In this document: positions 20,766-39,402 of the stretch, in pieces
Layout: each line of letters starts with the position of its first letter
Numbering within the stretch: the first letter of the stretch is position 1
From: a virus
IMG/VR virus record: IMGVR_UViG_3300010384_000005
Strand: one strand, 5' to 3'
DNA: 64,000 bases
Made by a program: the position numbers and the translations under genes
The notes under the pieces: generated by a model
What the model was told of the DNA's origin: nothing
The model's database searches: none
Seen by the model: the letters and a program-made list of their open reading frames with translations, nothing else

Positions 20766-22595
20766 ATGCCAATGCCGCCAGTCAGTGAGCGACAGCGTAA
20801 AGCTATGTTCGCGGCCGCGGCAGGCCATAGCAATCTCGGCATACCCAAGAAGATAGGCGAAGAGTTCGTGGGCAAAGACGCCGTGGAAGCTCCACCGCTT
20901 GCCGCTGGTGTGATCTTCATCGCTCCGGATGGTGCTGTTCTCCTGCTCTGCCGAAGCGCACAGGAAGCCAACTACGGTGGCCATTGGGCTCTTCCTGGCG
21001 GGAAGGGCGAAGACGGCGAAACGCCTTGGCAGATCGCATGCCGCGAAGCTGAAGAAGAAATTGGGGCCGCAAACAAGCACGCATGGATTGGTGAGCCGAC
21101 CATAGCCGATGAGGTCACGACTCCCACCGGTATGGTGTTCACGACCTTCGTGCAGCCGGTTCGCTATCGCTTTGTCCCTGAAATCGATGCTGAGCACTGC
21201 GGATATGTATGGGCCACGGCTGATTGCCTCCCGAGCCCGATGCACCCGCAAGTAGCTCGTGTCCTTGGTATGCTCTTTCCTGAAGGTTCGGAAGAAATGG
21301 AAGCCAGAGATTCACGACCGATCTTTGCCGAAGATGGCGCTGCGGTAGGGATCGCTGAGGGCATAGCGTTTGACCGCGCCTCTGTTCGTTCCAAGGATGC
21401 GGACGGCCATATGCGGGTGGAGATCACACCGATCTCAAAGGCGAATGTATGCCCGTATTATGGCCGTGAGATTCCGAACTGGATGTCTCTCGGGCTTGAT
21501 CCAGAGCGGGTCTACAACCTCTACCGTGACCCGGAAGAGCTTGCAAAGGGCGCTGAGACATTCGCCGGTAAGCCGGTGATGATCATTCACAAGGCAACGA
21601 AGGCCGACAATCATCCGCGCGAAGTAGTGGTGGGTGCGGTAGGGGATGGGGTTGTATTCGATCCGCCTTATCTCAAGGCCCCTCTGATCATTTGGGACGG
21701 CGAAGCGATCGGTCTCATTGAGAGCGGCGAACAGCGTGAACTTTCGAGTTCATACCGATATGTCCCCGTGATGACGCCGGGCGTCGGCCCGGACGGCCAA
21801 CGATATGACGGCCGAATGACCGAAATCGTTGGCAATCACGTCGCTCTCGTTTCCGCCGGCCGCGCCGGATCGGATGTTTTTGTCCAGGACAACCTACCCG
21901 CCGGTTTGGCGGCAACCACTCCCAACAGCGGAATCCCGGCTGGCGGGGCTAAGCGGGCCCCGGCCCATGATGAAAAGGAGACAGAGATGTCGAAAGCTAA
22001 GGATAGTCGGGCCCGAGACGAAGGCCTGATGGAGCGTATCAAGGAAAAGGTCTCGGCCGAAGACTATAAGGCCCTTGACGAACTGATGGCTGGCAAAGCC
22101 AACGACGAAGACAAGGAAGAAGAAAAGAAGGCCGCCGACGAAGAGTCCAAGGCTGAGGAAAGGGCTGAAAAGTCCGAAGACAAAGCCAAGGATAAGGCTG
22201 CAAAGGACGAGGAAGAGGACGACAAGGAAAAGGCAGAGGACGAAGAGGAAGGCGTTTCCAAGGAAGCCATGGACTCCGCCATCAAGGCTGCTGTCATTGG
22301 GGAACGCAAGGCGCAGGCCGCTATCCGTGACGCCGAACGCTTCATCCGTCCGTGGGTCGGTGATCTCGCCGTGGCCTTTGATTCTGCCGATGATTACTAC
22401 AAGGCTGCTATCGAAGCTAATGGTCGCTCTGTCAAGGATGTCCATCCTTCCGCATATCGCGCCATCCTCGAAATGATCCCTAAGCCCGGCCAACAGCGCA
22501 CCCCGACGCCGCGCCTGGCAATGGACAGCGCCAAGTCCAACGGTTTCGCTGAACGGTTCCCGGAAGCGGCCCGCATCGGCGTCAGCCTCCGCTAA
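20766..22595 (+). CDS. Nudix hydrolase-DUF2213 head maturation protease/scaffold fusion
   Basis: Perfect Nudix box GKGEDGE-TPWQIAC-REAEEEIG. DUF2213 motifs ISKANVCPYYGREIP, ELSSSYRY, NHVALV..GRAG. D/E/K-rich scaffold tail. Confidence 0.85.
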   Translation: MPMPPVSERQRKAMFAAAAGHSNLGIPKKIGEEFVGKDAVEAPPLAAGVIFIAPDGAVLLLCRSAQEANYGGHWALPGGKGEDGETPWQIACREAEEEIGAANKHAWIGEPTIADEVTTPTGMVFTTFVQPVRYRFVPEIDAEHCGYVWATADCLPSPMHPQVARVLGMLFPEGSEEMEARDSRPIFAEDGAAVGIAEGIAFDRASVRSKDADGHMRVEITPISKANVCPYYGREIPNWMSLGLDPERVYNLYRDPEELAKGAETFAGKPVMIIHKATKADNHPREVVVGAVGDGVVFDPPYLKAPLIIWDGEAIGLIESGEQRELSSSYRYVPVMTPGVGPDGQRYDGRMTEIVGNHVALVSAGRAGSDVFVQDNLPAGLAATTPNSGIPAGGAKRAPAHDEKETEMSKAKDSRARDEGLMERIKEKVSAEDYKALDELMAGKANDEDKEEEKKAADEESKAEERAEKSEDKAKDKAAKDEEEDDKEKAEDEEEGVSKEAMDSAIKAAVIGERKAQAAIRDAERFIRPWVGDLAVAFDSADDYYKAAIEANGRSVKDVHPSAYRAILEMIPKPGQQRTPTPRLAMDSAKSNGFAERFPEAARIGVSLR

Positions 22596-34671: not shown

Positions 34672-35312
34672 TGGCATTCCCGGTAAACGTTCCCCGCGTG
34701 CCGGGAGTGCCGTCCGTTCTATTTGCGGCGGGCGCGGGACAAATCATCTCATTACTGACGCAGGACGCCGTCTCGCTCTTCAGCGGTGGTTCCCTACAGC
34801 AGCCATGGGGTATCTATCTGGGTGGCTCGCCAGTCGTCTTGGCTGACAACGTCGTCTCGTTCGATTTCAGACAGCAATATACGATCTCTGATTACCCCGT
34901 AGAGCAGGGGGCCTTTGCTTCCTACAATAAAGTGCAAATCCCGTTTGATGGCCGATTCCGGTTCTCCACGGGCGGATCTGATGATGATAAGTCCGCATTC
35001 GTCCAATCGATACGCGATATCATCGGTGACCTGAATCTCTATACAATCGTCACGCCGATCGCGATCTATTCGAGTGTAAACCTCACGCATTGGGATTACG
35101 GACAGACGGCTACCAATGGCGTAGGGTTGCTCACCATAGATGTCTGGACGGAGGAGGTGCGCGAAACAGGCGTGCAGGCGATGTCCAACACTCAGAGCCC
35201 TACTGCTGCCTCGCAGGTAAACGGTGGAACGGTTCAACCGGTTTCCGCTACCTCATTGCAGTCGGCCCAAACTGGCGCGATACGGTCCTCTGGCGGCCGA
35301 TTGGCGGGATAG
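34671..35312 (+). CDS. Baseplate/distal tail protein
   Basis: WGIY...ISDYPVEQGAFASYNKV motif, follows the tape measure. Confidence 0.8.
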   Translation: MAFPVNVPRVPGVPSVLFAAGAGQIISLLTQDAVSLFSGGSLQQPWGIYLGGSPVVLADNVVSFDFRQQYTISDYPVEQGAFASYNKVQIPFDGRFRFSTGGSDDDKSAFVQSIRDIIGDLNLYTIVTPIAIYSSVNLTHWDYGQTATNGVGLLTIDVWTEEVRETGVQAMSNTQSPTAASQVNGGTVQPVSATSLQSAQTGAIRSSGGRLAG

Positions 35313-35317
35313 CAAAC

Positions 35318-35620
35318 ATGTTGATTGTTCCGCTACAGGCCGTTCCAAATCAGACGGTTACCGTGACGCTCAATGATCAGGTCACGCAAATCAATGTCTA
35401 TCAGACCTATAATGGCCTGTTTATCGATATTTATTTGGAAAATGATCTCATCATAGGTGGCGTGATTTGTGAAAATCAAAATCGCATCATCAGGTCGGCC
35501 TATCTCGGTTATTCCGGTGATCTGGCATGGATCGATGTTCAGGGAGCAAGCGATCCGGATTATACTGGGATCGGAACGCGGTTCTTTCTGGCATATCTCA
35601 CGCCGGAAGAATTGGCTTAG
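35318..35620 (+). CDS. Baseplate protein (plug-like)
   Basis: IVPLQAVPNQT.TV.L...G...D..G..DP.Y.G.G.RF.L.Y. Confidence 0.8.
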   Translation: MLIVPLQAVPNQTVTVTLNDQVTQINVYQTYNGLFIDIYLENDLIIGGVICENQNRIIRSAYLGYSGDLAWIDVQGASDPDYTGIGTRFFLAYLTPEELA

Positions 35621-35624
35621 GCCA

Positions 35625-36239
35625 TCACTGATCCCAGTTGAAATCCATTGTGCCCATGTTGGTTTCAACTGAAACATTCAAAGGGTTGCATTCATAGGAG
35701 CCAACTGCGAAGCGCTCGCCATATGTCAAGTTTAATTGATTGTCCGGCGTCTCAGGCATAAGCAAGCGAGAAGTATATCTGCATTTCCCCTTGTTTACAG
35801 TTACCGACTTGACGGTGATACTATTTTCAAGGCTCGTTAAAATGACAGTCCAGTTGTCCATTGGTGAGAAGTTTGGGGACCCGATCGCGGATGGAATATT
35901 GTATTTATTAGCGACCAAACCATTTTCCGCGCCCATGTTCCAGTGAACATCGGTGTTCCCTCTAGGAGTATCAATAACGACTTCGATCGGGTCGCAATAA
36001 TACGTGCCGGCGTTAAAGGTCTGGCCGAATTTCAGGTTGATTGGCAGCGGAACCCCACCGCCATGCAAGCAGCCGCGATTCACATCGATATGATCGATTG
36101 TTAAATCATCGACTTTCGACGTGATTTGTAGATCGAAGTATCGGAAATCGCCGCTTACTGGTTGCTTGTTGGCGGCGAATGTATCTGCTTTTACGGGGAA
36201 AGCAGCAAGACATAAACTTGCGAATAAAAAAGCGCGCAT
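35625..36239 (-). CDS. Exported protein with two tandem Cys-containing beta domains (moron)
   Basis: Signal peptide MRAFLFASLCLAAFPVKA. Repeated VN(R/K)GxC...L.(F/Y)G..F..G.Y.C.P..V...T..G....W. Antisense to the late operon, GGAGG RBS. Confidence 0.75.
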   Translation of the reverse strand: MRAFLFASLCLAAFPVKADTFAANKQPVSGDFRYFDLQITSKVDDLTIDHIDVNRGCLHGGGVPLPINLKFGQTFNAGTYYCDPIEVVIDTPRGNTDVHWNMGAENGLVANKYNIPSAIGSPNFSPMDNWTVILTSLENSITVKSVTVNKGKCRYTSRLLMPETPDNQLNLTYGERFAVGSYECNPLNVSVETNMGTMDFNWDQ

Positions 36240-36293
36240 GACAGCCTCCAGGGGAGGCCATCATTATCCTGAATCGCGTAAAAGTCGATATGG

Positions 36294-36494
36294 CTATTCT
36301 TTCAGATAGGCATTCCCAATAAGCCAGTCTCGAAGGATGCGGCGGATGGCTTCTTGACGAGTGATGCCTTGATTTTCCGTCGCGAACTTATCGATCGCGC
36401 TCAGATCGGGCTCTTGAACACGAAGCACAATCCGATCGCTTTCTACGCTCGGACGGCCTCGTGATTTTTTGGGCACATTAATTGTTGACGACAT
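36294..36494 (-). CDS. CopG/ribbon-helix-helix regulator
   Basis: KKSRGRPS...IVLRVQEPDLSAIDKFA....ITRQEAIRRIL. Confidence 0.8.
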   Translation of the reverse strand: MSSTINVPKKSRGRPSVESDRIVLRVQEPDLSAIDKFATENQGITRQEAIRRILRDWLIGNAYLKE

Positions 36495-36585
36495 GAATAA
36501 AAGGTGACATAAAATAATCAGCCGCGCAAGATGCTACCAACATCTAACGCGGCCTAACCGAAACCGAACTTTACAGGAGTTCGAT

Positions 36586-36747
36586 ATGGCTAAATCATCT
36601 ATATCTCTTTCTTCGCTTTTCCGTAACCCTGCAGTTCGCGATGCTTTTGAGCGAGCTGAGCGCGATAATGGCGCGGCTTTCGTAATCTTGGCTCCGAAGT
36701 CCCCCACCTTAGGTGGTGGCGCGGCTCGGGTTCTGGAGGTTGCGTGA
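36586..36747 (+). CDS. Small hypothetical protein (53 aa), first gene of the cassette
   Basis: Manual translation MAKSSISLSSLFRNPAVRDAFERAERDNGAAFVILAPKSPTLGGGAARVLEVA, AGGAG RBS. Confidence 0.6.
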   Translation: MAKSSISLSSLFRNPAVRDAFERAERDNGAAFVILAPKSPTLGGGAARVLEVA

Positions 36748-37118
36748 TGGATCGGAGGACAATTCTCAAGCATTTGCCATTTGCTGCTGCTATTCTCGCC
36801 GCACCCGCTGTAGTATCAGCTAAAATGAGCGAAACTCCATTGGAGCGCGTCAATCGCCTTTCGGAGGAGCTTGCAATCGCACTGGACGACTACTGGGATG
36901 GAAAAGCCCACGCCACAGTGTTCCCAGCCTCATCTGGCTACGGCATCAAAATGTCCGTGACTCACGTGGAGGTTGACAAGTTCACTCGTCTTGAACGTCA
37001 TACCGAGGGTCTGAAAAAGGCATTCGCGGAAATCTATCCTGCGAAGAAACTGAACGTCTACAACCAGTTCAAATCGGATGGCGGGACCATTGTCTTCGTT
37101 ACGGCGGAGGAAGTCTGA
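36747..37118 (+). CDS. Hypothetical protein with a Tat-like leader
   Basis: MDRRTILKHLPFAAAILAAPAVVSA. TGATG coupling on both ends. Confidence 0.65.
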   Translation: MDRRTILKHLPFAAAILAAPAVVSAKMSETPLERVNRLSEELAIALDDYWDGKAHATVFPASSGYGIKMSVTHVEVDKFTRLERHTEGLKKAFAEIYPAKKLNVYNQFKSDGGTIVFVTAEEV

Positions 37119-37783
37119 TGGCCGTGGCAAAGAAAGAAGAAATTGGAATCGAGCTTCCGCCGCTGGATATCCGGTTGATGGAAGTGACTGTAATCGGCGA
37201 CAGTCCGCTGATCGTGCATGCTTGGTCGGAAAAGGCCAAGAAGGAAATGCTGGACAAACAGATGAAGAAGGCAAAGCCGGCGAAAGAACCCAAGAACCCG
37301 CAGGCAGACTTCGAAGCTTCAATGTATCGCCTTGCTGATGGTGGATACGGCTTTCCAAGCGTTGCCTTCAAAGCTGCTGCTGTCACGGCTGGAACATCAG
37401 TCGCTGGTTTGACGAAGATCCAAGCACGGCAAGCATTCCATATTCTCGGTGAAGACGCTGACATTGCTGGTGTCTTCGAAGGCTCTAAATCGCGAGTTAA
37501 TTTGATCCGCATAGGCGGCACGTCGCCCACAATGCGTGAAGACATGGTTCGCGTCGGCATGGGTACAGCAGACTTGCGCTATCGCCCTGAGTTTTCAGAG
37601 TGGCATGCAAAGCTTCTCGTTCGATACAATGCTAACGTTTTGAGCGAAAGTCAGATCCTGAACCTACTCAATGTTGCCGGGTTTGCCGTCGGAGTCGGAG
37701 AATGGCGCCCCGAGAAGGACGGCCAATACGGCATGTTCCATGTCGCGACCGAAGCCGATCTTGTGAAACTGGAGGCCGCATGA
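37118..37783 (+). CDS. Stand-alone Cas7/RAMP-like protein (Vipr-like)
   Basis: RAMP motif order: beta1 EVTVIGDSPLIVH; FPSVAFKAA (compare IPGSSLKG of Csm3/Cas7); thumb EDMVRV...DLRYRPEF; C-terminal G-rich loop AGFAVGVGEWRPEKDGQYGMFHV. Confidence 0.75.
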   Translation: MAVAKKEEIGIELPPLDIRLMEVTVIGDSPLIVHAWSEKAKKEMLDKQMKKAKPAKEPKNPQADFEASMYRLADGGYGFPSVAFKAAAVTAGTSVAGLTKIQARQAFHILGEDADIAGVFEGSKSRVNLIRIGGTSPTMREDMVRVGMGTADLRYRPEFSEWHAKLLVRYNANVLSESQILNLLNVAGFAVGVGEWRPEKDGQYGMFHVATEADLVKLEAA

Positions 37784-38286
37784 TGCGCATCGCCGGTTTT
37801 GAATTCGCTGAAGGTGCTCGTTTCCAGGCTGGAGCATCGAAGGACGCCAAGCTCATTGGCGAGCATCTGGAAATGCTTAGGAAGAGGTTCAAGGGTGAAC
37901 TAACGCCCGAGGACGTTCTTGAAGACGCCAAGCATGACAATTCTCCTCTCCATTCGTTTTTCGAATGGAGCGACACCGAGGCGGCTCGGCAATATCGGTT
38001 ACAACAGGCAAGGGGACTGATCCGCGCTGTAGTTGCCGTTTATGTCCGGGAGGATCAACCAGCAGTTAGACAGAAAGCCTATGTTCATATTCCTGAGCCG
38101 AGTGCCCCGCATTATCGAGAGGCCTCGCATGCGATGTCTCAGGCAAAGACGCGAGAAATGGTGCTGAAGTCTGCCCTTGCAGGGCTCCATGCATGGAAGA
38201 AGAAATACAAGGATCTCCAAGAATTCGCAGCGCTGATTTCGATCATCGACAAAATCGATGAGAAATCACTTCAACCAGTAGCATGA
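37780..38286 (+). CDS. Partner protein of the RAMP-like gene (helical, unknown function)
   Basis: ATGA-coupled to the RAMP gene. GELTPEDVLEDAK..NSPLHSFFEWSD.EAA..YRLQQARGLIR motif. Confidence 0.78.
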   Translation: MMRIAGFEFAEGARFQAGASKDAKLIGEHLEMLRKRFKGELTPEDVLEDAKHDNSPLHSFFEWSDTEAARQYRLQQARGLIRAVVAVYVREDQPAVRQKAYVHIPEPSAPHYREASHAMSQAKTREMVLKSALAGLHAWKKKYKDLQEFAALISIIDKIDEKSLQPVA

Positions 38287-38339
38287 GACAGAGGGTTATG
38301 CCGAGAGTTACTTACAACCTCGGACGCGAAAGCGGACAT

Positions 38340-38481
38340 GGCAGGCAGGTCTAGTTGAGTTAAGTCGTGGTCAGGTGTGGACCGGCAGGCGTGTTTAGGC
38401 AACGTCAGTTGAGGCCAGTTAAGCCGAGTTATGGCAGGCGGGGTTAGGCCCGTTATGATTTGGCAAGCTCAGGCAAGCCAT
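38340..38481 (+). repeat. Pentamer array: three GGCA-delimited units of (GNY-NN)8-9, putative guide RNA array
   Basis: GGCA at 38340, 38384 and 38433, followed by 8, 9 and 9 pentamers. Position 1 is G in 25/26, position 3 is C/T in 25/26, and positions 4-5 vary. Confidence 0.85.
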
Positions 38482-38500
38482 TTCTTGGATGCATAATAGA

Positions 38501-38531
38501 AGGCGGTTCTTCGGAGCCGCCTTTTTCTTTT
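38501..38531 (+). terminator. Rho-independent terminator closing the array
   Basis: AGGCGGTTC-TTCG-GAGCCGCCT followed by TTTTCTTT. Confidence 0.85.
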
Positions 38532-38541
38532 GGAGTAAAGG

Positions 38542-39402
38542 ATGTCCTTCACCGAAAAGAAAATCACCGTTCAGTTCAATTTGGCAAACGGCTCATTCGG
38601 CGACGGCAAGAACAATACTGCGATCGTGACAGGTCTGCGTTGCTCGGCAAATATCGATGCTACTGGCGGAGTTTCGAGCAACAGAATGCAGTTAGCAGTC
38701 TACGGTCTGCCCTTGTCGTTGATGAACCAGTTGAGCACGGTCGGAACCCAGTACAACTCGCTCTATAAGAATAGCATTACCGTTGAAGCTGGCGACGATA
38801 CCACAGGAATGTCTCTTGTTTTTGGAGGTGTGATTTTTTCCGCATTCGTAGACGCTCAGAACATGCCAGATGTAGCGTTTCGTGTTCAGGCGGCTCCCGG
38901 CCCATTCCAAGCAGTGAAACCCGTTCCCGCCCTAAGCATAAAGGGCTCTGCGGATGCTGCCGGGATGATGGGTAATCTCGCTAAGCAGATGGGGCTAGCC
39001 TTCGAGAACAACGGCGTTCAAGTGAAGTTAGCAAATCCGTATTTCGGCGGAACGGCTTGGACGCAGGCCATGGCGATAGCACGTCACGGCAATTTCGACC
39101 TGATCTACGAGCCGAACAAGATGGTGATCTCTCCACGAGGGCAGCCGCGGCAGGGGGATGCCATCCTGATCTCGCCCGATACCGGACTGGTCGGCTATCC
39201 GATGTTTTCGGAAAACATGGTTGTTGTTCGCTGCCTGTTTAATCCGGCGGTAAAGCAACTTTCTCTTGTTGAGGTCAAAAGCGACCTCACGCCGGCCAAC
39301 GGCAAATGGCAGGTCAAGAGCATCACCTATGAATTGGAATCGCAGACCCCCGGAGGGCGGTGGTTCATGGTCCTCGAACTGATCGCTATAGGAACACAAT
39401 AG
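38542..39402 (+). CDS. Baseplate hub protein
   Basis: MSF..K.I...F.L...I...GL..S.MN.LS...I..DTGLVGYP...W.V....Y.LES....G.WF. GGAG RBS. Confidence 0.85.
   Translation: MSFTEKKITVQFNLANGSFGDGKNNTAIVTGLRCSANIDATGGVSSNRMQLAVYGLPLSLMNQLSTVGTQYNSLYKNSITVEAGDDTTGMSLVFGGVIFSAFVDAQNMPDVAFRVQAAPGPFQAVKPVPALSIKGSADAAGMMGNLAKQMGLAFENNGVQVKLANPYFGGTAWTQAMAIARHGNFDLIYEPNKMVISPRGQPRQGDAILISPDTGLVGYPMFSENMVVVRCLFNPAVKQLSLVEVKSDLTPANGKWQVKSITYELESQTPGGRWFMVLELIAIGTQ

Follow-up and report, generated by a model that had tools for sequence, protein, structure and literature searches.

The stretch of DNA analysed here (hereafter the window, 64,000 nucleotides of the 66,966-bp IMG/VR virus record IMGVR_UViG_3300010384_000005) belongs to a temperate myovirus bearing an accessory island of about 2.9 kb between tail genes, encoding a Dit-like protein and a virion protein, and the gene of the baseplate hub. 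The island (35599–38541) comprises genes for a secreted 204-aa protein, a ribbon-helix-helix (RHH) protein and a 124-aa protein with a twin-arginine signal, the gene pair vipr-vap and a pentamer array. The vipr gene (37118–37783, plus strand) codes for a minimal RAMP/Cas7-like subunit of 221 aa named Vipr, which is the very translation product described in a previous sequence-only reading of this DNA. Its stop codon overlaps the start (ATGA) of a vap-like accessory gene (37780–38286, plus strand) for a 168-aa protein, and in 82 out of the 90 related loci analysed, a homologue of this partner gene adjoins vipr. The structural model of the partner protein is confident (pLDDT 91) and gives only weak, winged-helix-like fold matches; the protein could be assigned to no recognisable family and has no detectable similarity to anything annotated. 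Divergently oriented upstream of vipr lies the RHH gene (36294–36494, minus strand), the product of which has a weak match to Pfam RHH_1 (E 0.0016, below the cut-off). In 13 related loci, a homologue of the RHH gene likewise precedes vipr; the product is probably a regulator accompanying the cassette. The genes for the 124-aa twin-arginine-signal protein and the 204-aa secreted protein were also considered as parts of the system and were dismissed, since they are not conserved with vipr.

In the closest sibling virus (L277), the same slot is filled by 487 unrelated bp (L277:4514–5000) replacing the island and apparently encoding a small membrane protein on the opposite strand. Within 5 kb of the hub gene, homologues of vipr or vap are likewise absent in three further siblings (L278, L279, and L280), and Vipr was not found in the whole record of any of the four (L277–L280), three of these records being 97–100% complete. 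Concerning the virus backbone, a 100-aa ORF conserved in the siblings (35318–35620, plus strand) lies at the edge of the island and matches the virion structural protein family phrog_349 (E 7e-22); the longer ORF overlapping it on the minus strand (35333–35677) is probably spurious. In addition, the head maturation protease (20766–22595) possesses an N-terminal NUDIX-like region (phrog_1198/1185) at residues of about 33–166.

Vipr and its relatives

The four RAMP landmarks previously proposed for the 221-aa protein are located as described, in agreement with its AlphaFold model (pLDDT 96, pTM 0.90). In this model, beta-1 (residues 18–27) is followed by the conserved H34, the helix starting with FPSVAFKAA spans residues 81–94 and the "thumb" beta-hairpin (residues 138–146 and 150–159) bears the invariant R156, while the glycine loop extends over residues 187–209 with G188, G192, R197, and G205 being invariant among 80 homologues. 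Having a single RRM core, a thumb and a glycine-rich loop, the modelled structure represents a minimal RAMP fold. In the Foldseek comparison proposed for checking the assignment, run against a library of solved folds without the Vipr entry, Csm3, Cmr4 and type VII Cas7 were the closest solved folds. By sequence family, the protein is inconspicuous, as neither Pfam (E up to 1) nor NCBIfam or PADLOC gave a match to the protein and the PHROGs match is solely to the unnamed phrog_4652. Throughout the 66,966-bp record, there is also no match to the RAMP family PF03787, which was retrieved from control genomes, nor to Cas1 (PF01867), and a run of Tandem Repeats Finder on the window did not reveal any CRISPR-like array. 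Hence, the claim of a phage lacking both a CRISPR array and other cas genes holds, as does the Cas7/RAMP-like character of the protein, whereas its description as solitary has to be abandoned in view of the conserved partner gene and the pentamer array 3' of it.

The closest relative of known structure and function comes from VIPR (Viral Interference Programmable Repeat), in which a small phage-encoded RAMP, Vipr, polymerises with one protomer per repeat on vrRNAs composed of GGY/NN pentamers. The NN dinucleotides are thereby exposed for pairing with double-stranded DNA, with one target base left out in each unit, and rival mobile elements are transcriptionally silenced, according to three preprints describing experiments on the SUSP1 and Pseudomonas fulva clades only, both type II (10.64898/2026.04.26.720920, 10.64898/2026.04.26.720927, 10.64898/2026.10.15.759431). 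Searching the PDB chains with the single window sequence resulted in one significant match, the SUSP1 Vipr 36pp_D (E 2.5e-5), and a profile built from 80 homologues aligned with the same chain at E 2e-13, spanning residues 4–189 of 202. When ranking AFDB clusters by fold, A0A0F9A1L0 came out on top (E 1.3e-16, 30% identity), followed by X1U2U4, A0A661D0E2, A0A1F4YLN4, and A0A2D6XG06, and exactly these five are given as the founding Vipr accessions in the methods of 10.64898/2026.04.26.720920. Moreover, H17, R138, D177, W178, and R179, which are described as reading the GGY motif in SUSP1 Vipr (10.64898/2026.04.26.720920, 10.64898/2026.04.26.720927, 10.64898/2026.10.15.759431), align with H34, R156, E195, W196, and R197 of the window protein. 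Among the 80 homologues, these positions are occupied by H in 69, R in 80, E or D in 80, W in 59 and R in 80 sequences. The replacement of D177, the aspartate reading G1 in SUSP1, by E195 is a conservative change.

Related proteins are widespread, with more than 7,800 among the matches listed from a 90%-identity cluster database and 4,057 clusters at 50% identity (E ≤0.001) when searching 1.84 billion representative proteins. The closest relatives are named "hypothetical protein" and come from Rhizobium, Agrobacterium, Mesorhizobium, Sinorhizobium and related genomes. Clade members are found in Rhizobiales prophages as well as in Mycobacterium and Gordonia phages, the latter two being the isolated phages with a homologue, which is annotated as hypothetical every time. 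Judged from these sequence comparisons, the window locus is part of a very large clade distant from SUSP1, whose guide units are tail-less and overlap by 1 nt.

The pentamer array

The 255-nt intergenic region 3' of the vap-like gene holds the only periodic runs of G-G/T-Y-NN in the window, considering both strands of the 64 kb. It starts with a leader (38287–38343, plus strand) which contains a hairpin (CCGAG...CTCGG), also present in the RNA fold, and ends with CATGGCAG. This leader is nearly identical in one relative (L017), other relatives having a different hairpin leader. Three vrRNA units follow on the plus strand. Unit 1 (38344–38388) consists of nine pentamers, the last being GGCAG, with the NN series AG TA GA AA GT CA GT CC, unit 2 (38388–38437) of ten pentamers with GGCAG at the end and the series GT TA AA CA GA CA AA GA AT, and unit 3 (38437–38481) of nine pentamers, the last ones degenerate, with the series GG TA CC AT TT AA CA AA AT. 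Units 1 and 2 as well as units 2 and 3 share 1 nt at the GGCAG junction. The region is closed by an intrinsic terminator (38498–38535, plus strand) with a 12-bp stem, a 4-nt loop and a T run, which is likewise seen in the RNA fold. With 9, 10 and 9 pentamers, the runs exceed the four tandem YNNGG (GGY/NN) repeats required as a minimum next to vipr in VIPR systems. The triplet is G-G/T-Y, a "related consensus" of GGY, with T at position 2 in several units. In and around the array, Rfam did not reveal anything, the hammerhead ribozyme included, and no convincing sigma-70 promoter was found directly 5' of it; co-transcription of the array with vipr-vap is assumed.

An array of the same type is present on the vipr strand in all but 7 of the 90 related loci, and several of these seven are contigs ending near vipr. 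Altogether, 439 units were collected, showing G at triplet position 1 in 97%, G (81%) or T (16%) at position 2 and C (60%) or T (34%) at position 3, next to variable NN positions, although these triplet frequencies are partly circular, as the detector selects for the triplet. Free of such circularity are the GGCAG ends found in 291 of the 439 units and the exact 1-nt overlap between 186 pairs of neighbouring units. Since extending guides 1 and 2 through GGCAG does not gain any match, this pentamer is considered as punctuation and not as part of the guide.

Comparable arrays occur in isolated phages. Mycobacterium phage Saal (Cheoctovirus) carries a GGCAG-punctuated staggered GGY/NN array (L001:4598–4820, about 36588–36810 of the record) upstream of gp51, and arrays of the same kind, likewise punctuated by GGCAG, are found downstream of the vipr homologue in Gordonia phages ODay (L002:5629–5771) and Pipp (L003:5617–5832). 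In Pipp, the array coincides with gp43 (L003:5611–5880), annotated as "hypothetical protein" and probably not a protein gene.

Guide–target matches

Guides were decoded by the published rule, i.e., by joining the NN dinucleotides with one wildcard between each, resulting in 16–18 informative bases per guide (18 in guide 2). As the guides are that short, single guide matches constitute weak evidence. Guide 2, however, has at least 120 exact matches in IMG/VR when decoded with the 1-nt skip, compared to 6 with reversed dinucleotide order, 4 with a 0-nt skip and none with a 2-nt skip. Of the 120 matches listed, 112 lie in frame in a single capsid family, at a site reading V-Y-N-Q-E-H-N/K-E-I. The 46 distinct sequences of this site differ only at the skipped wobble bases; in silico, the base skipped in the 1-nt-skip mode of targeting is the codon wobble position. 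The putative target is a 305-aa major capsid protein, identified by Pfam (Phage_capsid_4), by phrog_371 and by the annotation of phages in GenBank. It is unrelated to the carrier's own capsid protein (phrog_264), and guide 2 has no counterpart anywhere in the 64-kb window.

A guide-2 site was not found in 401 sampled bacterial genomes from the order to which a Rhizobium genome with a homologous vipr (L005) belongs, nor in two genomes carrying a vipr homologue. Many capsid-target contigs are about 7.1 kb long; treating these as one small element was rejected, as they are not collinear and do not have terminal repeats and, consequently, represent fragments. One 18.6-kb contig, IMGVR_UViG_3300026078_000107 (L015 and L127), encodes both a vipr-vap pair 90% identical to that of the window and a capsid gene with a perfect guide-2 site. 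With vipr and the target capsid on one contig, the carrier group and the group of capsid-target phages plausibly meet, and the combination of vipr-vap with a foreign capsid gene points to a cassette moving between unrelated phage backbones. Guide 2 of the window would strike a phage that has a near-identical Vipr of its own.

Guides 1 and 3 lead back to the tail genes flanking the island. The baseplate hub gene, starting in the carrier 60 nt 3' of the array, is matched by guide 3 at 18/18 positions in all four close IMG/VR hub homologues (L277–L280), where the site reads G-Y-P-M-F-N-Q-N-I. The corresponding carrier allele (39193–39218, plus strand) reads G-Y-P-M-F-S-E-N-M and matches at 15/18, the mismatches lying together in units 6–7. 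For guide 1, the match is perfect (16/16) in the Dit-like tail gene of L215, a less closely related sibling, where the site reads S-Y-D-K-V-Q-V-P, and amounts to 13–14/16 in that of L277, L279, and L280. This orthologous, in-frame site is the best one for guide 1 in all four of these siblings; in L278, guide 1 has no match at the orthologous position, the best of 11/16 being elsewhere. The carrier's Dit-like allele (34920–34942, plus strand; S-Y-N-K-V-Q-I-P) matches at 12/16, and this site and the one in its hub gene are the best self-matches of guides 1 and 3 in the window. For guide 1, the match in L215 is the only exact one in a homologous gene. Most other exact matches of guides 1 and 3 in IMG/VR were discarded as chance or database redundancy, being low-G+C sequences with in-frame stops that recur on near-identical contigs. 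Guides 1, 2, and 3 all have the sense of the coding strand and follow the codon register of their targets, with the skipped base at the wobble position. Consequently, they would pair with template DNA, whereas pairing with the mRNA is impossible.

Proposed function and known systems

The analysis has shown the homology and fold of the protein, the architecture of the locus, the conserved array and the guide–target matches with their controls, and together these argue for a complete VIPR system that would silence late genes of co-infecting or resident rivals, a reading held with high confidence. Transcription and processing of the array, ribonucleoprotein assembly, DNA binding, silencing and a benefit for the phage are inferred. 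By homology with SUSP1, the transcript of 38344–38481 would be processed into three short guide RNAs, on which Vipr protomers would assemble at one per pentamer, each sequestering a G-G/T-Y triplet and leaving the two variable bases exposed. Through these dinucleotides, the resulting filament of 8–9 protomers would pair with double-stranded DNA, one base in three being skipped, and transcription would be blocked. In this way, the major capsid gene of a foreign phage would be silenced by guide 2, and the Dit-like and hub genes of siblings devoid of VIPR by guides 1 and 3. The sequence-only reading of a Cas7-like protein polymerising on pentamer RNA, acting without a nuclease and repressing rival phages is supported by the present results and essentially correct.

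It is unlikely that in a real VIPR locus guides 1 and 3 serve for timing or dampening the carrier's own tail operon and are not directed against siblings. Such self-regulation is suggested by the carrier's best sites, which are orthologous, in frame and at most 3.5 kb away from the array, and by the hub site with its 83% match exceeding the 80% cut-off for targets used in 10.64898/2026.04.26.720920; weak self-binding or self-regulation may hence occur. However, perfect matches in siblings combined with imperfect ones in the carrier are the reverse of what self-regulation predicts, and guide 2 lacks any counterpart in the window. According to 10.64898/2026.04.26.720920, moreover, the sets studied contain no self-targets at or above 80%, and disturbed NN pairing abolished silencing. 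It is very improbable that the filament of Vipr and RNA acts on mRNAs of rivals, as type III CRISPR does, and not on DNA. Although Csm3 and Cmr4 as nearest CRISPR folds are RNA-targeting subunits, all three guides of the window are sense-like and thereby complementary to template DNA and not to mRNA, and SUSP1 VIPR is reported to bind double-stranded DNA (10.64898/2026.04.26.720920, 10.64898/2026.04.26.720927, 10.64898/2026.10.15.759431). Equally improbable is a degenerate or orphan CRISPR-Cas subunit of the Cas7/Csm3 kind, employed, for example, as a decoy or anti-CRISPR using crRNA. The ranking of Csm3, Cmr4, and type VII Cas7 as closest solved folds would fit, but was obtained with the library devoid of Vipr, and both its sequence and its AFDB fold ranking place the protein nearer to Vipr proteins than to Cas7 of any kind; furthermore, the record lacks a Pfam RAMP match, Cas1 and a CRISPR array, and the pentamer array is conserved alongside vipr across the 90 loci. 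Finally, a virion or tail-assembly protein, as might be guessed from the position of vipr within a tail/baseplate module with tape-measure and Dit genes on one side and the baseplate hub on the other, is extremely unlikely, considering the RNA-binding RAMP fold, the vipr-less siblings (three records nearly or fully complete, the slot of L277 being occupied by unrelated DNA) and the homologues of Saal, where the early-region neighbours are the repressor and antirepressor genes, and of Pipp, where integrase and helix-turn-helix genes are adjacent.

Within the preferred reading of a VIPR system directed against rivals, two of the three guides appear to aim at sibling alleles of the tail genes flanking the slot, guide 3 at the hub gene directly downstream of the cassette and guide 1 at the Dit-like gene one gene upstream. 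From the sequences, it might be speculated that poison and resistant alleles form a linked unit, which we regard as possible but doubtful. In mixed infections or upon superinfection of a lysogen, cassette-less siblings would lose tail and baseplate expression, and recombinants would survive only with the cassette together with its flanking alleles. If true, this would be an RNA-guided analogue of the marker exclusion by homing endonucleases. Targeting of linked flanking structural genes is not described in the available text on VIPR (10.64898/2026.04.26.720920, 10.64898/2026.04.26.720927, 10.64898/2026.10.15.759431).

The system might itself become a target. In a related VIPR locus, the guide from the first unit (L025:4188–4247) shows a 20/22 match in codon register to positions 38014–38045 within vap of the window, and five further related loci have vap genes matched by it at 20–21/22. 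In its own locus, this guide stays below the 90% cut-off everywhere, and shuffled guides did not give any match of at least 90%. Judging from these matches, this looks like VIPR-against-VIPR targeting, as is reported for other clades in 10.64898/2026.04.26.720920, 10.64898/2026.04.26.720927, and 10.64898/2026.10.15.759431.

VIPR as such is already known from the 2026 preprints, and the window locus is a further example. It adds a clear case of a tail-less, GGCAG-punctuated and 1-nt-overlapping array as well as a specific putative target set, in which virion genes of siblings without the cassette are joined by one of a foreign phage, the carrier alleles being mismatched. The 1-nt-skip, wobble-blind code is upheld in silico beyond the characterised clade, leaving the picture of VIPR unchanged. 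Besides, a natural comparison is provided by the three 97–100% complete cassette-less siblings with a perfect guide-3 site versus the carrier with its three-mismatch allele, making the putative silencing of rival virion genes, mismatch tolerance and processing of staggered arrays directly testable.

Compared to the type II system of Escherichia phage SUSP1 (Vipr, vap1 and vrRNAs; PDB 36pp), the window locus shares a homologous Vipr of about 200 aa in which the H, R, acidic, W and R residues contacting the GGY motif are conserved, the two-gene operon without CRISPR array, the GGY/NN pentamer guides, the 1-nt-skip code on codon wobble positions and its location on a phage with rival mobile elements as targets. 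On the other hand, the similarity revealed by the single-sequence search is only distant, T is often found at triplet position 2, E195 takes the place of D177, and the partner protein does not resemble anything annotated. In SUSP1, the vrRNA is about 100 nt long and has a structured 3' tail, whereas the window has short tail-less units of 8–9 guide pentamers with GGCAG and 1-nt overlap. The targets differ as well, being a satellite recombinase and lysis-lysogeny regulators in SUSP1 and, presumably, virion structural genes of siblings and foreign phages in the window. "Staggered" vrRNA arrays of other VIPR types are mentioned in the legend of fig. S18 of 10.64898/2026.04.26.720920, the text of which gives neither sequence, type nor target; successive units share 1 nt there, exactly as in the window and in the 186 related pairs. 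With Csm3 and Cmr4 of type III CRISPR systems, RAMPs of the Cas7 group, the window Vipr shows only 7–10% identity, and it does not match the Pfam RAMP family. Their period is 6 nt versus 5 nt here, and the window lacks Cas10, Cas1, Cas6, and a CRISPR array, the putative target being DNA that would be bound without cleavage. In marker exclusion among T-even phages, a homing-endonuclease gene acts on the allele of a nearby gene in a relative infecting the same cell, the allele linked to it being resistant. By analogy, the window cassette would resemble this arrangement in that an accessory gene acts on the nearby allele of a relative and its own linked allele is resistant, but marker exclusion proceeds via DNA cleavage and gene conversion, whereas the window system would employ RNA-guided silencing.
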